37,959 bases of DNA from IMG/VR virus record IMGVR_UViG_2541047683_000006, positions 1 through 37,959 of that record; one strand, 5' to 3'. This document shows positions 9,895 to 37,959 of the stretch, piece after piece (the stretch's first letter is position 1; the number at the start of each line of letters is the position of its first letter). Origin of the DNA: a virus (Duplodnaviria > Heunggongvirae > Uroviricota > Caudoviricetes). The notes beneath the pieces were generated by a model that was given only the letters and a program-made list of their open reading frames with translations, had not been told where the DNA came from and made no database searches. The position numbers and the translations under genes are program-made.

Positions 9895-10704
9895 ATGAAT
9901 AATCTGATGGTCATTGATGGTATTGAAGTTCGTCGTGATGCTTATGGGCGTTACAGCCTGAACGATCTGCATCGCGCAGCAGTAGCATCTGGTGCAAATG
10001 CCAGAACCAAGGAGCCAGGAAAGTTTCTTTCCAGCCAACAGACTGTTGAGCTTGTTCATGAATTGACCAACACCCAGAATTTGGGTGTTGACCCGGTGAG
10101 TGTGATTCATGGGGGAAATGAACGGGGAACGTATGTCTGCAAGGAACTGGTGTATGCCTATGCAATGTGGATCAGCCCGTCATTCCATCTGAAGGTGATC
10201 CGTACTTTCGATATGGTAACCAGCGCACCGGAAAAATTATCCGGGCAGGCTGCTGACAAGATGCAGGCTGGTGTGATTCTGCTGGACTTTATGCGTCGGG
10301 AATTAAACCTGTCTAACTCATCTGTGCTTGGGGCTTGTCAGAAACTCCAGGAGGCTGTTGGCTTACCGAATCTGGCACCGCGCTATGCCATTGATGCTCC
10401 TGCTGATGCACACGATGGCTCAAGTCGCCCGACACTGTCACTGAGCGCACTGCTGAAACAGTATGGTATACGCCTGACGGCTAATCAGGCATATCACCAG
10501 ATGGTGAAACTGGGGATCGTCGAGCAGCGCGAACGATACAGCCGTACCGCGATTAACAACATCAAAAAATTCTGGTCGCTGACAGCGAAAGGCTGCATGT
10601 TCGGCAAGAACATCACCAGTCCTGCAAATCCGCGCGAGACGCAGCCGCATTTCTTCGAATCCCGATTCCCTGAGCTGTTAAAGCTGCTCGATACCGTTCA
10701 TTGA
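9895..10704 (+). CDS. KilA-N domain protein (antirepressor-like)
   Basis: ATG at 9895 with SD GAGGAG (track ORF starts at 9862); N-terminal segment (VIDGIEVRRDAYGRYSLNDLHRAA...) resembles the KilA-N domain as recalled. Confidence 0.5.
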   Translation: MNNLMVIDGIEVRRDAYGRYSLNDLHRAAVASGANARTKEPGKFLSSQQTVELVHELTNTQNLGVDPVSVIHGGNERGTYVCKELVYAYAMWISPSFHLKVIRTFDMVTSAPEKLSGQAADKMQAGVILLDFMRRELNLSNSSVLGACQKLQEAVGLPNLAPRYAIDAPADAHDGSSRPTLSLSALLKQYGIRLTANQAYHQMVKLGIVEQRERYSRTAINNIKKFWSLTAKGCMFGKNITSPANPRETQPHFFESRFPELLKLLDTVH

Positions 10705-29088: not shown

Positions 29089-30164
29089 ACGATAACGTCA
29101 CGCTACGGGTAAATGGCCGGGAGTGGAATGGCTGGACATCGGTGCGCATCGGTGCCGGTGTTGAACGACTGGCGCGGGATTTCAGTGTGGAGATCACCCG
29201 CCAGTGGCCGGGAGATGAGGGTATCACCACGCTTCAGCCGCGCATTAAAAACGGTTCAAAAGTGGAAGTGCTGATTGGTGATGAGCTGGTGATCACCGGC
29301 TGGGTGGAGGCGACGCCCGTTCGTTACGATGCCCGTTCGGTCAGCACCGGTATTGCCGGACGCAGTCTGACCGCTGATCTGATTGACTGTGCAGCCGAAC
29401 CGACACAGTTTAACGGACGATCGCTGGTACAGATTGCGCAGGCGCTTGCTGCGCCCTTCGGCATTGAGGTGGTGAACAACGGTGCGCCGTCGGGTGTTAT
29501 TCCTGACGTCCAGCCTGATCACGGTGAAACGGTGATTGAGGTAATCAACAAAATACTCGGTCAGCAGCAGGCACTGGCTTACGACGACCCGCACGGCAGG
29601 CTGGTGATTGGCGGTATTGGCTCAACGCGGGCACATACTGCGCTGGTACTCGGGGAAAACATCCTTTCCTGCGATACGGAGAAGAGTATCCGGGAGCGAT
29701 TTTCTGTTTACCAGGTGGCGGGGCAGCGTGCCGGAAACGACGATGATTTCGGTGAGACCACCACCACCGCGCTGCGGGCCCGCACAGAGGACGCATTTAT
29801 TGCCCGTTACCGTCCGATGTATATCAGGCAGACAGGGCAGGCTACGGGAGCAGGCTGTATTGCCCGTGCGGACTTTGAAGCCCGACAACGGGCGGCGCGG
29901 ACGGATGAAACCACCTATGTGGTGCAGGGCTGGCGACAGGGTAACGGTACGCTGTGGCAGCCCAACCAGCGGGTGATTGTCTTTGATCCGGTCTGTGGTT
30001 TCGACAATACCGAACTGCTTGTTTCGGAAGTCACGTTTACTCAGGACCAGAACGGCACCCTGACGGAAATCCGTGTCGGCCCGCCTGATGCTTATCTGCC
30101 TGAACCCGAAGCCCCCGGCGCGCGGAAAAAGAAAAAAGCCAGAGTACAGGAGGACCCGTTCTGA
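29085..30164 (+). CDS. Baseplate hub protein (Mu gp44/P-like)
   Basis: 359 aa; conserved order after the DNA-circulation gene. Confidence 0.65.
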   Translation: MNDNVTLRVNGREWNGWTSVRIGAGVERLARDFSVEITRQWPGDEGITTLQPRIKNGSKVEVLIGDELVITGWVEATPVRYDARSVSTGIAGRSLTADLIDCAAEPTQFNGRSLVQIAQALAAPFGIEVVNNGAPSGVIPDVQPDHGETVIEVINKILGQQQALAYDDPHGRLVIGGIGSTRAHTALVLGENILSCDTEKSIRERFSVYQVAGQRAGNDDDFGETTTTALRARTEDAFIARYRPMYIRQTGQATGAGCIARADFEARQRAARTDETTYVVQGWRQGNGTLWQPNQRVIVFDPVCGFDNTELLVSEVTFTQDQNGTLTEIRVGPPDAYLPEPEAPGARKKKKARVQEDPF

Positions 30165-30712
30165 TGAGGACGATTGAAGCCATGCAGCGACAACTCCTCG
30201 GCCTGATTGGGCGGGCCGTGGTGAAAAGCATCAGTGCCGCCACGAAATGTCAGACCGTGGATGTGTCCCTGATTGCCGGTGAACCCAAAGCCGGGGTTGA
30301 ACATCTTGAACCCTACGGTTTTACCGCAAGGGCAAACAGCGGTGCGGAAGCTGTGGTGTTGTTTCCGGATGGCGACCGTTCTCATGCGGTGGTTGTTACG
30401 GTGTCGGACCGTCGCTACCGCCTGAAAGGGCTGCAGACTGGGGAGGTGGCTGTCTATGACGATCAGGGGCAGTCCGTGACGCTGACCCGGGAGGGGATCG
30501 TGGTGGACGGTGCTGGTAAAACGATCACGTTTCACAATGCGCCTAAGGCACGTTTTGAAATGGACCTGGAAGTGACAGGACAGGTGAAAGACCTGTGCGA
30601 CTCCAGCGGCACCACCATGTCAGCGATGCGGCTTGCCTATAACGGGCATCGTCACAGAGAGAACGGTCAGGGCAGTAACACCGACAAACCTGATAAAGCG
30701 ATGGAGGCATGA
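30164..30712 (+). CDS. Baseplate spike/assembly protein (gpV / Mu gp45-like)
   Basis: 182 aa; conserved order. Confidence 0.65.
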   Translation: MRTIEAMQRQLLGLIGRAVVKSISAATKCQTVDVSLIAGEPKAGVEHLEPYGFTARANSGAEAVVLFPDGDRSHAVVVTVSDRRYRLKGLQTGEVAVYDDQGQSVTLTREGIVVDGAGKTITFHNAPKARFEMDLEVTGQVKDLCDSSGTTMSAMRLAYNGHRHRENGQGSNTDKPDKAMEA

Positions 30713-31137
30713 TGGAACTGTGGCTGACGGTGAACGGTAAACGCACCTGCGCCAGCGCACCGCTGGATCCGCTGACCCGCGCCGTGGTGATTTCCCTGTT
30801 TACCTGGCGGCGGGCGGAGCCTGATGACAACGCCGGCGTCCCGATGGGATGGTGGGGGGATACCTGGCCTGCGGTACAGAATGACCGTTACGGCTCCCGA
30901 CTGTGGCTGCTTCAGCGCAGCAAACTGACCAATCAGTTGGTGCAGACGGTAAGGGGGTATATCCGCGAATGCCTGCAATGGATGATTGATGACGGCGTGG
31001 TGTCCCGTATTGATCTGGATATCCGCCGCACCGGGATTAATGAACTGGGTAACAGTATCACTCTCTGGCGTCGTGACGGACCGGTAATGATTTCTTTTGA
31101 TGATCTGTGGAGTGCGATAACGCATGGCGGACAGTGA
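30709..31137 (+). CDS. GP46-family baseplate protein
   Basis: 142 aa; conserved order in Mu-like baseplate clusters. Confidence 0.65.
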   Translation: MMELWLTVNGKRTCASAPLDPLTRAVVISLFTWRRAEPDDNAGVPMGWWGDTWPAVQNDRYGSRLWLLQRSKLTNQLVQTVRGYIRECLQWMIDDGVVSRIDLDIRRTGINELGNSITLWRRDGPVMISFDDLWSAITHGGQ

Positions 31138-32182
31138 ATTTCAGCGCCCGACGCTGGCAGAAAATATCAGTATGCTCCGTAACGATTTATTCGCCAGGCT
31201 GGACGTCAGCGACACGCTCCGGCGCATGGATGAAGACGTGCGGGCAAAGGTGTATGCGGCGGCGCTGCATACGGTTTACGGTTACATCGATTATCTGGCA
31301 ATGAACATGCTGCCTGACCTGTGCGATGAGTCCTGGCTGGCGCGACATGCTGCGATGAAACGGTGTCCGCGCAAGGGAGCCACGGCTGCCAGTGGGTATA
31401 TGCGCTGGGAAGGTGTCAGCGATGGCCTGAAGGTGACCGCCGGGAGTGTTATTCAGCGCGATGACCTGGTGCAGTACACGACAACTGACGATGCAACCAG
31501 CTCCGGTGGTGTCCTGCGCGTGCCGATCGCCTGCTCAAGTGCAGGTGCGGTCGGTAACGCTGACGACGGTACGGCATTAATCCTGGTCACGCCGGTGAAT
31601 GGTCTGCCGTCTTCCGGTGTGGCTGACACCCTGACAGGCGGATTTGATACTGAAGAGCTGGAAACGTGGCGCGCCCGCGTCATTGAGCGGTATTACTGGA
31701 CGCCGCAGGGCGGGGCTGACGGGGACTATGTTGTCTGGGCTAAAGAAGTGCCCGGCATTACCCGCGCATGGACATACCGTCACTGGATGGGAACGGGAAC
31801 TGTCGGTGTGATGATTGCCAGCAGTGACCTGATTAATCCCATTCCTGAAGAATCAACGGAAACGGCGGCAAGACAACATATCGAGCCACTGGCCCCGGTG
31901 GCAGGCTCTGATTTGTATGTATTCAGGCCGGTGGCACATAAAGTGGATTTTCATATCCGCGTGACGCCGGACACACCGGAAATACGAGCCGCCATTACTG
32001 CGGAGTTGCGTTCGTTCCTGCTGCGTGATGGTTATCCGCAGGGAGAACTGAAGGTGTCGCGTATCAGTGAAGCGATTTCCGGTGCGAACGGGGAATACAG
32101 CCATCAGTTGCTTGCACCGGCGGACAATATCTCCATTGCAAAAAATGAACTGGCGGTTCTGGGGACGATTTTATGGACGTGA
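31124..32182 (+). CDS. Baseplate J-like protein (Mu gp47-like)
   Basis: 352 aa; conserved order. Confidence 0.75.
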
Positions 32183-32757
32183 CAAACGATGATTACATCC
32201 GTCTGTTGTCGGCACTGCTGCCGCCCGGTCCGGCGTGGCCAGCTAGCGATCCGGCGATTGCCGGTGCAGCACCGTCATTAACCCGTGTTCATCAGCGTGC
32301 GGATGCCCTGATGCGGGAGCTGGATCCGCGCACCACCACCGAACTGATAAATCGCTGGGAGCGTCTGTGCGGCCTGCCGGATGAATGTATTCCCGCAGGG
32401 ACACAGACCCTTCTCCAGCGTCAGCAACGGCTGGATGCGAAGGTTAACCTGGCGGGCGGCATCAACGAGGATTTTTATCTTGCACAGCTTGCTGCCCTGG
32501 GCAGACCAGATGCCACCATCACGCGATACGACAAAAGCACCTTCACCTGCTCATCGGCCTGTACTGACGCGGTGAATGCGCCGGAATGGCGGTATTACTG
32601 GCAGGTCAACATGCCAGCCGCCACCAACACCACCTGGATGACATGTGGCGATCCCTGTGATTCCGCACTGCGTATCTGGGGCGACACCGTTGTCGAGTGT
32701 GTGCTTAACAAACTCTGCCCTTCGCATACCTACGTAATTTTTAAATATCCGGAGTAA
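32173..32757 (+). CDS. Mu gp48-like tail protein (DUF2313/YmfQ family)
   Basis: 194 aa; conserved position between the J-like gene and the fibre gene. Confidence 0.65.
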
Positions 32758-32760
32758 TCC

Positions 32761-34689
32761 ATGCATCGTATAGACACGAAAACCGCGCAGAAGGATAAGT
32801 TCGGCGCGGGTAAGAACGGTTTTACCCGTGGTAACCCCCAGACCGGCACACCTGCCACCGATCTGGATGATGACTACTTTGACATGTTGCAGGAAGAACT
32901 TTGTAGCGTGGTGGAGGCCTCCGGTGCCAGCCTGGAGAAGGAGCGGCACGACCAGTTGCTTACCGCGCTTCGTGCGCTGCTGTTAAGCCGCAAGAATCCG
33001 TTTGGTGATATCAAATCGGACGGCACAGTACCAACGGCTCTCGAAAACCTTGGATTTACAGACCCGGATGACGGGGATTCCCTGGTAGCAGTTAAACAGG
33101 ACCTGGAGAATGCTGTTATCCGAAATCAGCACGACAAAAACGCAGAGATTATTAGTGTGAGGGATTTTGGGGCTATCGGTGACGGTATTGCTGACGACAC
33201 TGCGGCGATACAGCGGGCAATTGACTCGGTTCCGGCAGGATCGCGACTGGGATTCTGGAGAGGAAAGTATTTGTTCGACACTGTAACGTTGTCAAAACCC
33301 ATTGTTCTGGTGGGAGATGCAGACCTGGTTCACAACGGATTCGTTATAAAATCAAGTAATATAACATCGTTATTAACGGGCATGCAGACCTGTCGTGAAT
33401 ACCATCATTCAGCCAGGGCGTTTTCGTGTAATGCCCACCAGGACTTATCTGACTACAAAAATATAAAAATCCTGTTCAACAAGTTTGCGGGTTTTTTCTA
33501 CGCAACTGATATAACAGCCAGGGATTACGATGCGATGTCTGACAATCCGGATAATCGAGTTGTCAGTGATACCCTGATACTTGGTTGTACGTCAGTAGCC
33601 CCTGAGGGTGTAAACGCCGGGCACTTTCAGCATATAGGGGTAACCAACGCAAAGTGCGTCGGCAATTCAACGCACGGAGGGAAAAACGCGACCTCATACA
33701 ATTTTATCAACGGGAACGGATATCTGATTGTTCAGGGTAATTACGATTACGGAAATACTTATGGCTCCTGTGAGGTTGAAAACGATTCCAGTAATACAGT
33801 AATTTCCGGGAACGCATTCAGGGGCAAAATCTGGATTGATGACAGCAGCAACGTCACTGTCAGCGGAAACACCGTTGACGACGAAATTTTGATTACGTCC
33901 CAGACTGACGATGTGCGAAACGTTCTGGTTGCAGGGAATACGGCCAAACGAATAGTCGTTCAGCAATTTGGAGACGAACCTGTCGGCTGGGCATACGATT
34001 GTCATATACAGGGAAATCTGACAACGGGTAATCCGGAATACGAACACGATATTCTGTTGTCGTCACTGATTAGCGGAACAGTGGAAAATAATCGCCTGAA
34101 CGGAGAATCGAAATATTCTATTGGTATTATACGTCATCACAATACGGACCTGATAATACGTAACAATACCGGGAAACGAGAAGCCATTATTTCTGGTAGT
34201 GGCGGAAGAATAATCGATTACGCAAATATAGGTTTTAATGTATTTACTCAGTCAGACAGTCGACACGTTTCCACACTATTGACCCCGGTGTCGGATTATC
34301 TTGATTTACCAGGAAAATACTTGCACGGAACTAAATACGCCGGACAACTGATACCAGGCGGGAATACTGTTATTTCGCTATCAGTACCAGATGTAAAAAA
34401 CTTAGTTTTCAGGGGGATATCGCTGTGGGTGCTAATCCGTGACCCTGCAAATAACAATATGTCCAGCTACAGAATTGATGGATTTTTCATGGTTGTAGGT
34501 TCATCCGTGTCAATAAGTTTTGGAGCTCCTTATTCAGTTCTGGGAGTCGATTCTGGATTTGTGACCGTTGCGAACCAGGGAAGCACAACAACAGCTATCA
34601 TGCTGAGCATAACGAATACCCACGAAACGAAAAATCTGCAAGTTACGATGCTGCCAGCAGTTACCAGCAGATTTGGGCTGGACGATTAA
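32761..34689 (+). CDS. Tail fibre/tailspike with conserved N-terminal anchor and pectate-lyase-like right-handed beta-helix domain (putative polysaccharide depolymerase)
   Basis: 642 aa; N-terminus [22 protein letters not shown]...[14 protein letters not shown] is fibre-anchor-like; [22 protein letters not shown] is the canonical pectate-lyase-3 signature; Asn/Gly/Thr-rich repeats; strongly AT-rich 3' two-thirds. Confidence 0.7.
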
Positions 34690-34707
34690 AAATCTGACAA
34701 ATTGACG

Positions 34708-34753
34708 CGCAATTCTGGGCGGAGAGCGCACAACCTGACAGCCCAGAATTGCG
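34708..34753 (+). other. Perfect 13-bp inverted repeat (cgcaattctgggc ... gcccagaattgcg, 20-nt spacer) 19 nt after the tailspike stop
   Basis: Seen directly; could be the late-operon terminator hairpin (weak T-run follows) or a relic recombination site next to the invertase remnant. Confidence 0.5.
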
Positions 34754-34946
34754 TGTTAATTTGCCCAGAAAAAAACGCAAAGTTACAACTGCTCGCGCAC
34801 AGGGACGAACTGGAGGTCGCTGTCCAGAACAATGGGCGCAGGCTGGACGACTAATTGCATCAGGAGTTTCTCGCCAGAAGGTAGCGATCATCTATGATGT
34901 TGGCGTATCGACTTTGTATAAGAAGTTTCCGGTCGGAGATAAATGA
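34749..34946 (+). pseudogene. Remnant of a Gin/Hin/Pin-family serine DNA invertase (C-terminal HTH domain only)
   Basis: Track ORF starts at TTG; GGRCPEQWAQAGRLIASGVSRQKVAIIYDVGVSTLYKKFP matches the C-terminal DNA-binding domain of Gin/Hin as recalled; the ~130-aa catalytic N-terminal domain is absent. Confidence 0.55.
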
Positions 34947-35049
34947 AACCGTAGCACGTCGTATGCAAGAACGTGCCACGGCTGGCTGGTTAACTTTCGA
35001 TAGTGCGAGTATTGAATGATTTCCAGCCGTTACCGATTTTACGTGTTAA

Positions 35050-35298
35050 TTAGTGAACAAACCACTCATCAGCAGATTCCCAGGTATCTTTCAGAGTCTC
35101 CTGAACAAAAGTTTTTGCAGAATCCTTATCTGCGGTGCGTGTAACAGAAAGGCCATCGTTGCTGGTGGCTTTTACGATCACCTCTACATCGTCATAACGT
35201 TTACTGATGCGTCGGGTTAATTCTTCCTTTAACGCATCCACAGCACCGGTTGGCATTTTAGTCATTTTTTCTTTGGCTATGCAGATTTCAATACGCAT
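35050..35298 (-). CDS. dinI: DinI-family DNA-damage-inducible protein
   Basis: 82 aa; MRIEI.IAK...LP.GA.DAL..EL.RRI...........V.....N.LSV.....KD......ETW.SADEWF matches DinI; SD GAGGGA; two LexA boxes upstream. Confidence 0.8.
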
Positions 35299-35313
35299 AA
35301 AAGTCCCTCTATA

Positions 35314-35357
35314 CTGTGTTTGTATACAGTGTTATTTTTAACTGTATGGATAAACAG
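35314..35357 (-). promoter_or_regulatory. Two SOS (LexA) boxes in the dinI-like promoter region
   Basis: taCTGTgtttgtatACAGtg (35314-35329) and aCTGTatggataaACAGtg (35342-35357), both fitting CTGT-N8-ACAG; the second abuts the integrase stop. Confidence 0.7.
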
Positions 35358-35359
35358 TG

Positions 35360-36457
35360 TCAAGAGGTCTTATTTCTGCTCTTTTGGAGCTCTTCAAAAC
35401 GATTATGTAAAGATTTCGGATACAGTTCGGTATATACCTGCCATAGCACGTTTAATGAACGATGCCCTGTAACTTGGGCGACTTCCTCAATACTAAAACC
35501 AGCCTCAAATAAGCGACTTGCCCCTTCTCTACGCAAATCATGGTATCGCAGATCTTTAATACCTAATTTGCTTCTTACCCTCTGAAATCCCGCAGTAACA
35601 GAAGTGCTGTTATATGGAAAAATGAATTCCGATTTTTGGGGCTGTCGTTGGACGATATCCCAGGCTTCCCCAAGCAAGGCTACTTTCATGTGGTTGCCTT
35701 CCTTTTTGCGTGGATCTTTCCTGTCTCTTACGAGTATAGATTTTTGTTCCTGGTCGAGATCTTCCCATCGTAACCGGCATACTTCTCCGATTCGCATACA
35801 GGACCACACAGAAAATTTGAGGATATCAACGAACGGAATTTTTGAGCATTTATGTGTAGATCGTTGTTGAAGACCTTCAATGAGCATGTCCAGTTCATCA
35901 GATGCCGGTCTACGATTACGACGGTTTGATTTACCAATCAAACCAAGTTTAAGTAGATATGGACGAGCACTTTTCGCCGGGTTTGATGTGTAATTAATTC
36001 CGTATACAGGTTTGGCCGCATCCAGAACACTGCCAAGATAACTAACATCGTGGCTGACTGTTGCTGGACCTGCACCAGCGTTGTTTCTTAGCCTACAATG
36101 TTCAATTACGTCATTTTCTGTCAGTTCGGATAGTTTGATCGCGGAGATGTCACTATCCATAAGCAGTTCCAGCACATATCTTTTAGTACGACCTGCTTTA
36201 CCTCCGGCATTTGGGTCATTTAAATATTTGTGTAGTAAGTCACGGACTGTAAGTCCGTCAACTGCATTTGATGATGGAATGCCATATAGATCTAATTCCA
36301 TCACTTTCTGTGTACCCCATGTTTTGGCATGGGCATGTTTAGGGAATGTTTTGCTTTCCCTGTAAGTGATAACACCTTTTTCTTTGATAATCACATTACA
36401 GCGATAGCGTGGTGTGCCATCGGATTTTAGTCGTTTCTCTATGTTATAGTACGCCAT
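35360..36457 (-). CDS. int: Tyrosine-type site-specific integrase (dusA-associated)
   Basis: 365 aa; C-terminal catalytic region containing HDLRR...GHRS..Y-type motifs; adjacent to dusA. Confidence 0.85.
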   Translation of the reverse strand: MAYYNIEKRLKSDGTPRYRCNVIIKEKGVITYRESKTFPKHAHAKTWGTQKVMELDLYGIPSSNAVDGLTVRDLLHKYLNDPNAGGKAGRTKRYVLELLMDSDISAIKLSELTENDVIEHCRLRNNAGAGPATVSHDVSYLGSVLDAAKPVYGINYTSNPAKSARPYLLKLGLIGKSNRRNRRPASDELDMLIEGLQQRSTHKCSKIPFVDILKFSVWSCMRIGEVCRLRWEDLDQEQKSILVRDRKDPRKKEGNHMKVALLGEAWDIVQRQPQKSEFIFPYNSTSVTAGFQRVRSKLGIKDLRYHDLRREGASRLFEAGFSIEEVAQVTGHRSLNVLWQVYTELYPKSLHNRFEELQKSRNKTS

Positions 36458-36545
36458 TACACGACCTCGTTATTTCGGGTTCCCATAAATCGTGGGAACC
36501 TGCGCGGGAACCTAACGCGAGAAAAATAGCCTGAAATGTTCAAAA

Positions 36546-37583
36546 ATGCACGATAATCCTGAAACACAGAAAACTAATCAAACCAGCGCGATGCCTGAGA
36601 AAACTGGCGCTTACGGGAGTTCTCGGTTTAGCATTGCTCCTATGCTCGACTGGACGGACAGACATTGCCGCTATTTCTTGCGTCTGCTTTCCCGCAATAC
36701 GTTGCTGTATACCGAAATGGTGACTACAGGGGCGATTATTCACGGTAAAGGTGATTACCTGGCGTACAGTGAAGAAGAACATCCGGTAGCATTGCAACTG
36801 GGCGGTAGCGATCCGGCGGCGCTGGCGCAGTGTGCAAAGCTGGCAGAAGCGCGCGGATATGATGAGATCAACCTGAATGTCGGCTGCCCGTCTGACCGGG
36901 TGCAGAACGGCATGTTTGGGGCGTGTCTGATGGGTAATGCGCAGCTGGTTGCCGACTGCGTGAAAGCGATGCGCGATGTGGTGTCGATTCCGGTGACGGT
37001 GAAAACGCGTATTGGCATCGACGACCAGGACAGCTATGAATTTCTCTGCGATTTCATCAACACCGTTTCCGGCAAAGGCGAGTGTGAGATGTTCATCATC
37101 CACGCACGTAAAGCCTGGCTTTCGGGGTTAAGCCCGAAAGAAAACCGTGAAATCCCGCCGCTCGATTATCCGCGTGTGTATCAACTGAAGCGTGACTTTC
37201 CGCATCTGACAATGTCGATTAACGGTGGCATCAAGTCGCTGGAAGAGGCAAAAGCGCATTTGCAACATATGGATGGCGTGATGGTCGGGCGCGAAGCGTA
37301 TCAGAATCCGGGTATTCTGGCGGCGGTAGACCGAGAGATCTTTGGTTCCTCGGATACCGATGCCGATCCGGTGGCGGTAGTGCGCGCCATGTATCCGTAC
37401 ATTGAGCGTGAACTCAGCCAGGGGACGTATCTTGGCCATATTACCCGGCATATGCTGGGCTTGTTCCAGGGTATTCCTGGCGCGCGGCAGTGGCGGCGTT
37501 ATTTAAGTGAAAATGCCCATAAAGCTGGTGCTGACATTAACGTGCTGGAACAAGCGCTCAAACTGGTGGCAGATAAGCGTTAA
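36546..37583 (+). CDS. dusA: tRNA-dihydrouridine(20/20a) synthase DusA
   Basis: 345 aa matching E. coli DusA as recalled ([14 protein letters not shown]..., [14 protein letters not shown]...); the extreme 5' end may be prophage-supplied. Confidence 0.9.
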
Positions 37584-37613
37584 CTTTTCACCAAAAAGTA
37601 GTCAAATTCACCA

Positions 37614-37641
37614 CGCCCTGCGCACCGTCGCGGGGCGTTTT
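37614..37641 (+). terminator. Intrinsic terminator after dusA
   Basis: cgccctgcg-caccgt-cgcggggcg stem (one G-U pair) followed by TTTT. Confidence 0.45.
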
Positions 37642-37665
37642 GCTGTTAAATCAATAGATTATTTT

Positions 37666-37680
37666 TGGCATGATTCTTGT
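37666..37680 (+). promoter_or_regulatory. Sigma-54-type promoter upstream of pspG
   Basis: TGGCATGATTCTTGT fits the -24 TGGCA / -12 TTG spacing; pspG is known to be sigma-54 and PspF dependent. Confidence 0.45.
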
Positions 37681-37716
37681 AATGCCAGCAAGAGATTTCA
37701 TATTTGGGAGAGCATC

Positions 37717-37959
37717 ATGCTGGAACTACTTTTTGTGATTGGCTTTTTTGTCATGCTGATGGTCACCGGCGTTTCGTTGCTGGGTATTATCGCTGCGCTG
37801 GTTGTGGCGACGGCCATTATGTTCCTCGGCGGTATGCTGGCATTGATGATTAAGTTGCTGCCGTGGTTACTACTGGCGATTGCGGTGGTGTGGGTTATTA
37901 AGGCGATTAAAGCACCAAAAGTGCCTAAATATCAGCGTTATGACCGCTGGCGTTACTAA
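37717..37959 (+). CDS. pspG: Phage shock protein G
   Basis: 80-aa very hydrophobic protein ending ...KVPKYQRYDRWRY, matching E. coli PspG; the track ORF starts further upstream, but the ATG at 37717 follows the sigma-54 promoter. Confidence 0.85.
   Translation: MLELLFVIGFFVMLMVTGVSLLGIIAALVVATAIMFLGGMLALMIKLLPWLLLAIAVVWVIKAIKAPKVPKYQRYDRWRY

Follow-up and report, generated by a model that had tools for sequence, protein, structure and literature searches.

The region between a tailspike gene and a DinI-like gene in an E. coli prophage integrated at dusA holds a perfect inverted repeat followed by what is left of a DNA invertase gene, and this raises the question of whether the two are remains of one former invertible host-range switch or whether the palindrome came from elsewhere. 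The initial annotation had read both as the scar of such a switch, replaced by a fixed tailspike. The window analysed is the whole stretch of 37,959 nucleotides, to which strain 1428 (NZ_CP023366) is 100% identical over the query; its relevant features are collected in Table 1. The resident prophage is integrase-borne rather than a transposable Mu-like phage: tblastn with the A and B proteins of the Mu-like prophage in strain E2348/69 found no Mu A/B homologue in the window. Two tandem CTGT-N8-ACAG palindromes, at 35313–35330 (ACTGTGTTTGTATACAGT) and 35341–35358 (ACTGTATGGATAAACAGT), lie just upstream of the dinI-like gene start and resemble what we take to be the consensus of LexA (SOS) boxes.

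Table 1. Features of the tail-fibre locus and its surroundings (positions in the window).
Feature	Position	Strand	Evidence
Constant tail-fibre N-terminal part, ~98 codons, StfP/Mu-S-like, native to the resident prophage	32761–33056	+	98% identity to L001 (strain 104)
pixL remnant: outer half-site (CTCTCGAAAACC) and TT core; inner half now GGATTTACAGAC	33038–33051	+	Alignment with L001 pixL and pixR
Imported tailspike body, pectate-lyase-like beta-helix	33057–34689	+	Pfam PF12708, E 1.7e-9; no L001 counterpart
Left palindrome arm, R3-like repeat; TTCTGGGC at 34713–34720	34698–34720	+	
Right palindrome arm, R2-like repeat; TTCTGGGC on the - strand at 34741–34748	34741–34763	-	
R1-like terminal repeat (GCCCAGAAAAAAACGCAAAGTTACA), ending in the terminus ...ACA-3' at 34787	34763–34787	-	Homologous to the last 25 nt of L021, L029 and L030
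pinE pseudogene stub, codons 129–184 and stop	34788–34946	+	97% identity to L001 from 34789 on; Pfam HTH_7; PDB Gin/Hin; PGAP pseudogene
DinI-like gene	35050–35298	-	
Tyrosine integrase	35360–36457	-	
dusA	36546–37583	+	

The invertase remnant is what the initial annotation said it was, a decayed gene of which only the C-terminal helix-turn-helix survives. The reading frame 34698–34946 contains no ATG, and its product matches Pfam HTH_7 (resolvase HTH; E 8e-11, above the gathering score). Alignment with Gin, Hin and Pin proteins, as had been proposed, identifies the C-terminus of a Gin/Pin-family protein: the stub is 75% identical to PinE residues 120–184 and aligns to Gin (PDB 3uj3, residues 125–181, E 4e-13) and to the DNA-binding domain of Hin (PDB 1hcr). 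The C-terminal HTH DNA-binding domain of serine DNA invertases is therefore present. The N-terminal resolvase-type catalytic domain with its active-site serine is absent, since homology to PinE begins at codon 129 and Pfam returns HTH_7 only. Just after 34824 there is additionally a 12-bp in-frame deletion (CCCAAACTTTCA), which converts GGRRPKLSPEQW to GGRCPEQW, so that PKLS of the GGRRPKLS arm is gone, R has become C and the minor-groove arm (GGRRPK) ahead of the HTH is not intact; this arm corresponds to the minor-groove-binding arm of Hin. With no start codon, no catalytic domain and the four arm residues PKLS missing, the stub is unable to make an invertase. It is an ordinary pseudogene that RefSeq already flags, the PGAP annotation of strain 1428 describing 34788–34946 as a 'helix-turn-helix domain-containing protein, incomplete, missing N-terminus'. 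The stub had also been placed immediately after the palindrome, and it does lie downstream, but invertase-derived DNA begins only at ~34788/34789, and the in-frame stretch 34698–34787 is non-coding foreign DNA.

Two side observations concern the same stretch. Rfam gives a match below threshold to CssrB, an sRNA encoded on the Shigella chromosome, that covers the end of the stub and the spacer after it (34924–34980; 31.7 bits, where the gathering score is 76; E 2e-4). An independent pin stub is found in a lambdoid prophage beside a serine acetyltransferase gene (L003, 4998–5123), and it starts ~2–4 nt from the right edge of the 12-bp deletion in the window (...CA/CCAGAACAATGG, the slash marking the edge), which may be coincidence or may mark a fragile spot.

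That an invertible host-range switch once stood here and gave way to a fixed tailspike is supported by comparison with a related prophage that keeps the segment intact. E. coli strain 104 carries a 97–98% identical prophage, also at dusA, with a complete invertible tail-fibre segment and pinE (L001); its gene order is fibre, tfa, inverted tfaE, inverted fibre end, pinE, DinI, integrase and dusA. By blastn, window positions 29388–33056 correspond to L001 1–3669 (98%) and 34789–37959 to L001 5954–9135 (97%), so that the breakpoints fall at 33056/33057 and 34788/34789. Between them, 1,732 bp of the window (33057–34788, the tailspike body plus ~100 bp) stand in place of 2,284 bp of L001 (3670–5953), and the DNA missing from the window comprises both variable fibre ends, both chaperones and pin codons 1–128. 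Alignment with the L001 pixL and pixR sites shows that the left divergence point is the pixL crossover site, which reads CTCTCGAAAACC-TT-GGTTTGGGAGAA in L001 and CTCTCGAAAACC-TT-GGATTTACAGAC in the window. A search for residual crossover sites, also suggested at the outset, was thus successful in part: the outer pixL half-site survives at 33038–33051, and it is the only one found, with no second pix- or gix-like site anywhere in the window and hence no pair of inverted 26-bp sites around an invertible segment. The new inner sequence at 33052–33063 (GGATTTACAGAC) resembles, with one extra base, what we take to be a Mu gix half-site (GGTTTACAGGAA), and the tailspike module may once have stood behind a site of the gix type.

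The tailspike body is fused in frame to the native fibre N-terminus, giving a single ORF of 642 aa (32761–34689). The last 107 bp of the native part (32950–33056) match the S gene of the Mu-like prophage in E2348/69 at 89% identity, and the PGAP label for the equivalent of 32761–33056 is 'StfP, missing C-terminus'. PGAP splits the ORF into a 'StfP pseudogene' and a 'glycoside hydrolase family 55 protein' (L002, 1262–1555 and 1658–3190); despite this split, 32761–34689 reads as one continuous open frame. In the protein database the nearest outside relatives of the body are tailspikes of the P22 type, at 54–55% identity. DNA searches of E. coli genomes and phages with the tailspike return only the same cassette, in 13 genomes, and an IMG/VR search returns only the same prophage; no donor Mu-like phage carrying this tailspike was found in these collections or in the protein database. 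One candidate donor, P0002, was discarded as a deletion derivative of the same prophage family.

The palindrome lies within this imported segment. The perfect 13-bp repeat is present as first described (CGCAATTCTGGGC at 34708–34720, GCCCAGAATTGCG at 34741–34753) and forms the core of two 23-nt arms that are complementary at 21 of 23 positions and separated by a 20-nt spacer. Both mismatches are G.U-compatible on the + strand, so that all 23 positions pair as RNA; the predicted fold of that strand has a free energy of -42.6 kcal/mol (z = -9.5), and none of 200 shuffled sequences was as stable. The inverted repeat is conserved in many genomes and is therefore not a chance occurrence. Similar copies, with 82–90% identity, occur in ~86 other E. 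coli genomes, just 3' of the last tail-fibre or chaperone gene, and across the aligned copies the conserved unit is the hairpin plus GCCCAGAAAAAAACGCGAAGTTACA. In the alignment all independent copies are conserved as far as ...GTTACA and then diverge at once.

This sharp boundary coincides with the terminus of a transposable element. Three complete Mu-like prophages bear the hairpin and its flank at their right junction, and each encodes a Mu-type transposase, an AAA ATPase, Mor and a gpT head protein: L021 in strain E2348/69, which also has a Mu-type tail, L029 in strain 08-00022 and L030 in strain CFS3292. They split eutC, an HTH gene of a resident prophage and mhpT, respectively, with 4-bp target duplications of CACT, CTTG and ATTC, and all three have the termini 5'-TGTGGGGTAG...GAAGTTACA-3', with the GTTACA terminus abutting the split gene. 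(The L021 junctions are at 9936 and 45671; those of L029 are read as the reverse complement.) A 5-bp duplication with a right end of ...GTTAC was ruled out, because the insertion in mhpT is compatible only with 4 bp and TG...CA ends. Overall the right end is present in 94 of 5,426 E. coli genomes (~1.7%), beside many different host genes, among them eutC, mhpT, fliH and genes for an ABC protein and an M24 peptidase, as transposition predicts. In the window, blastn similarity to the E2348/69 prophage ends exactly at 34787, and the terminus ...GTTACA (34782–34787) is followed directly by pin, in keeping with the rule of a terminal CA at the target junction. The window keeps the right junction only, so the 4-bp duplication of the complete prophages has no counterpart here; it also contains no Mu-like left-end sequence, which makes the right end an orphan.

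The ends of the complete prophages share a repeated motif, TTCTGGGC. The 46.5 kb of L021 contain seven occurrences, against 1.4 expected overall, and six of the seven lie within ~130 bp of the two termini. Three are found at each end, oriented + + + on the left and + - - on the right, and the motif occupies nt 18–25 counted from either terminus. In the window the triplet is again + - -, at 34713, 34741 and 34763, with the same spacing of 28 and 22 nt as in L021. The ends of Mu itself each carry three MuA-binding sites with different spacings (Craigie 1984, reviewed in PMC3145075), a layout that the triplets mirror. By analogy with the MuA sites L1–L3 and R1–R3, the TTCTGGGC repeats would be bound by the transposase, and the palindrome arms would be the two inner, mutually inverted repeats among these presumed sites (R3-like and R2-like). 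We consider it probable that 34698–34787 is the right, attR-like end of a Mu-like transposable phage; it is foreign to the resident prophage, given that the window has no Mu A/B homologue. Among named phages, those nearest to the transposase region of the E2348/69 type reach only ~70% identity, and the paper describing SfMu, a close relative of Mu proper, is silent on the Mu-like family found here (PMC4406740). Directly before attR, L021 (45461–45553) and L030 (38946–39038) carry ~30 N-terminal codons of a gin-like invertase (MFIGYVRASTNDQDTDLQRNALNCAGYELIF, then a stop codon); both of these full prophages retain an invertible-looking fibre segment, and their switch is presumably frozen too.

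These observations bear on two other interpretations of the palindrome. The idea that it is a scar of the switch itself, as a degenerate gix, hix or pix site or some other remnant of the invertible segment, draws on its position between a tail-fibre gene and the stub, the former place of pixR, which in L001 lies just upstream of pinE. It is nevertheless very improbable: the palindrome is unlike the L001 pix sites and has no AAACCNNGGTTT core, it is not in the intact sister locus, where the inverted repeat I2 is AAACCTTGGTTTGGGAGAAG / CTTCTCCCAAACCAACGTTT, it falls within the imported 33057–34788, and it is homologous to the right termini of Mu-like prophages. This part of the initial annotation is accordingly abandoned. 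Alternatively, the hairpin could act first and foremost as RNA, terminating transcription or stabilising the mRNA at the 3' end of the tailspike cassette, and would occur at Mu-like ends only because tail-fibre genes come last there. It starts 8 nt past the tailspike stop codon, other prophages too have it behind their last tail-fibre or chaperone gene, its RNA stem is very stable, and both arm mismatches become G.U pairs on the sense strand. Against this, a terminator scan found no intrinsic terminator in 34300–35500, the loop is 20 nt long, the 3' flank CCCAGAAAAAAA has no U-tract, and even at a permissive E-value Rfam gives only generic miRNA-hairpin matches, far under their gathering scores. 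Moreover, the left end of the Mu-like prophages, which is not the end of any gene, also has three copies of TTCTGGGC, and conservation of the hairpin flank reaches the exact transposon terminus. We regard a primary RNA function as unlikely, while the hairpin may have been exapted secondarily as a 3' stem-loop of the tailspike mRNA.

The best explanation for the junction as a whole is, in our judgement, the transposition of a Mu-like phage into pin followed by a homologous deletion, and we hold it with reasonable confidence. The resident dusA prophage would once have had a tail-fibre switch of the e14/Mu-G type, as its sister in strain 104 still has. A Mu-like phage whose last gene was a fusion of a constant fibre N-terminal region (Sc) to the tailspike would then have inserted after codon 128 of pin, reading in the direction of the resident late genes, with predicted junctions ...GAAGCTG/TGTGGGGTAG on the left and ...GTTACA/GCTGCTCGC on the right and a 4-bp duplication of GCTG. 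Homologous recombination between the two co-directional Sc regions would have removed the invertible segment, two-thirds of pin from its 5' end and nearly the whole Mu-like genome, leaving the resident Sc, the tailspike body, attR and the 3' stub of pin. The 107 bp shared at 89% identity between the Mu-like S gene and the end of the window's Sc provide a substrate for this deletion. In a variant of the scheme, the host DNA carried on the right end of Mu-type virions would have served as the second homology arm; prior insertion into pin would still be needed. At the right junction, base 34788 is A where strain 104 has G, and pin homology runs from 34789; with similarity to the Mu-like end stopping at 34787, the transposon terminus abuts pin codon 129 within 1 nt. 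Both relics are identified, their breakpoints are placed, the right one to within 1 nt, and the ancestor-type locus exists intact in strain 104; the order of events is what we infer from them. The stub and attR are probably two juxtaposed relics, both functionless.

Some findings speak against this explanation. Neither a donor phage nor a pin-inserted intermediate was found; a Mu-like left end attached to the 5' part of pin occurs in 0 of 5,426 complete E. coli genomes. The hairpin is also flipped relative to bona fide ends: in all copies of the tailspike cassette its arms and loop (GGAGAGCGCACAACCTGACA) are inverted with respect to the terminal repeat and the upstream tail gene, and in the comparison with L004, L005, L007, L010, L012, L013 and L015–L017 every non-cassette copy has the opposite orientation. 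The flip thus sets the window lineage apart from every bona fide end examined, and suggests that a small inversion took place between the 23-nt arms, or else that the donor lineage already differed in this way. Finally, a P2-like prophage (L019; NZ_CM135151, 4216–6865) contains the tailspike and hairpin (window 33039–34772, 99%) attached, at the same ACCTTGG core, to the N-terminus of a P2-type fibre and joined to codon ~149 of a different invertase, of which L028 4057–4656 is an intact version. The break in L019 falls within the R1-like terminal repeat (...CAATTAGCC/GAGCAAATAGC), and this junction was therefore not made by transposition; it is either secondary or independent.

It might then be supposed that the cassette came without any transposition into this pin, by illegitimate recombination, or that a ready-made block of tailspike, attR and pin stub was imported by recombination in flanking homology. 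A degenerate prophage near ssrA (L020) does contain window block 31609–34971 at 98–99% identity, from the fibre N-terminus through the tailspike and attR to the pin stub, with the same 12-bp deletion, and this, together with the non-terminal junction in L019, makes it clear that the block, once formed, was moved by recombination. Import of this kind accounts for the spread of the block and not for its origin, however, and a junction at most 1 nt from a transposon terminus is expected of strand transfer and improbable by random breakage. An origin without transposition into this pin is for these reasons decidedly unlikely, and transposition into pin somewhere in the lineage remains the simplest origin.

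Orphan ends of this type are not confined to the window family and L019. Degenerate Mu-like right ends also lie just 3' of the tail-fibre genes in a P2-like prophage at prfC (L005, 3975–4062) and in the lambdoid phage phiSTEC1575-Stx2k (L006, 1905–1982), whose DinI-integrase-dusA module is 98% identical to that of the window. This distribution is a hint that several types of phage have acquired fibre modules of Mu-like origin. Tentatively, and with more doubt than belief, we raise the broader possibility that Mu-like phages act as recurrent shuttles of receptor-binding modules into non-transposable prophages (e14-like, P2-like and lambdoid Stx), recombination at the fibre N-terminus leaving behind a new fibre or tailspike and an orphan attR that a transposase may still recognise. 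The orphan end in the window keeps all three repeats and the terminus, and should the transposase of a co-resident Mu-like prophage still recognise it, the tailspike cassette would remain mobilisable.

In sum, we read the palindrome as the orphaned end of a Mu-like phage and as a record of how the tailspike arrived, a new detail within known kinds of process. The locus is genome archaeology rather than a working device, and provides a base-resolved case in which a phase-variable, two-state host-range device was exchanged for a single tailspike of the O-antigen type. The comparison also identifies the ends and the repeat motif of a fairly common, uncharacterised family of E. coli Mu-like prophages, whose orphan right end may serve as a marker of tail-fibre modules from such phages. 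Our understanding of invertases and of Mu is unchanged; annotation is refined and one documented route of mosaicism is added.

The locus can be set against four groups of known systems. With the invertases it shares an HTH_7 domain related to PinE of e14 and Gin of Mu and, as in e14, Mu and P1, a position downstream of the tail-fibre genes; it differs from the Hin, Gin, Cin and Pin systems in retaining codons 129–184 only, with no start, no catalytic serine domain and four arm residues deleted, and in retaining one half of one crossover site. Its intact sister in strain 104 has the architecture of the Mu G, e14 P and P1 C segments, namely a constant fibre N-terminus, a crossover site, two opposed C-termini with chaperones and an invertase, whereas the window has lost the segment and has one non-invertible tailspike joined on at the crossover site. 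Like the right end of Mu (R1–R3), the end found here has a terminal ...CA and three repeats, common to the left end, within ~90 bp of the terminus, and its full-length relatives abut target DNA with a short duplication; unlike Mu, the family of L021, L029 and L030 duplicates 4 bp rather than 5 bp, the TTCTGGGC core is unrelated to what we take to be the MuA site consensus, and the window end is an orphan, with no left end and no transposase genes, whose inner two sites are flipped relative to functional copies. The receptor-binding body, lastly, resembles the P22-type tailspikes of podovirus prophages in sequence and in its PF12708 pectate-lyase-like fold, but the protein does without the P22 head-binding domain and is carried instead on a myovirus fibre N-terminus of the Mu-S/StfP type.
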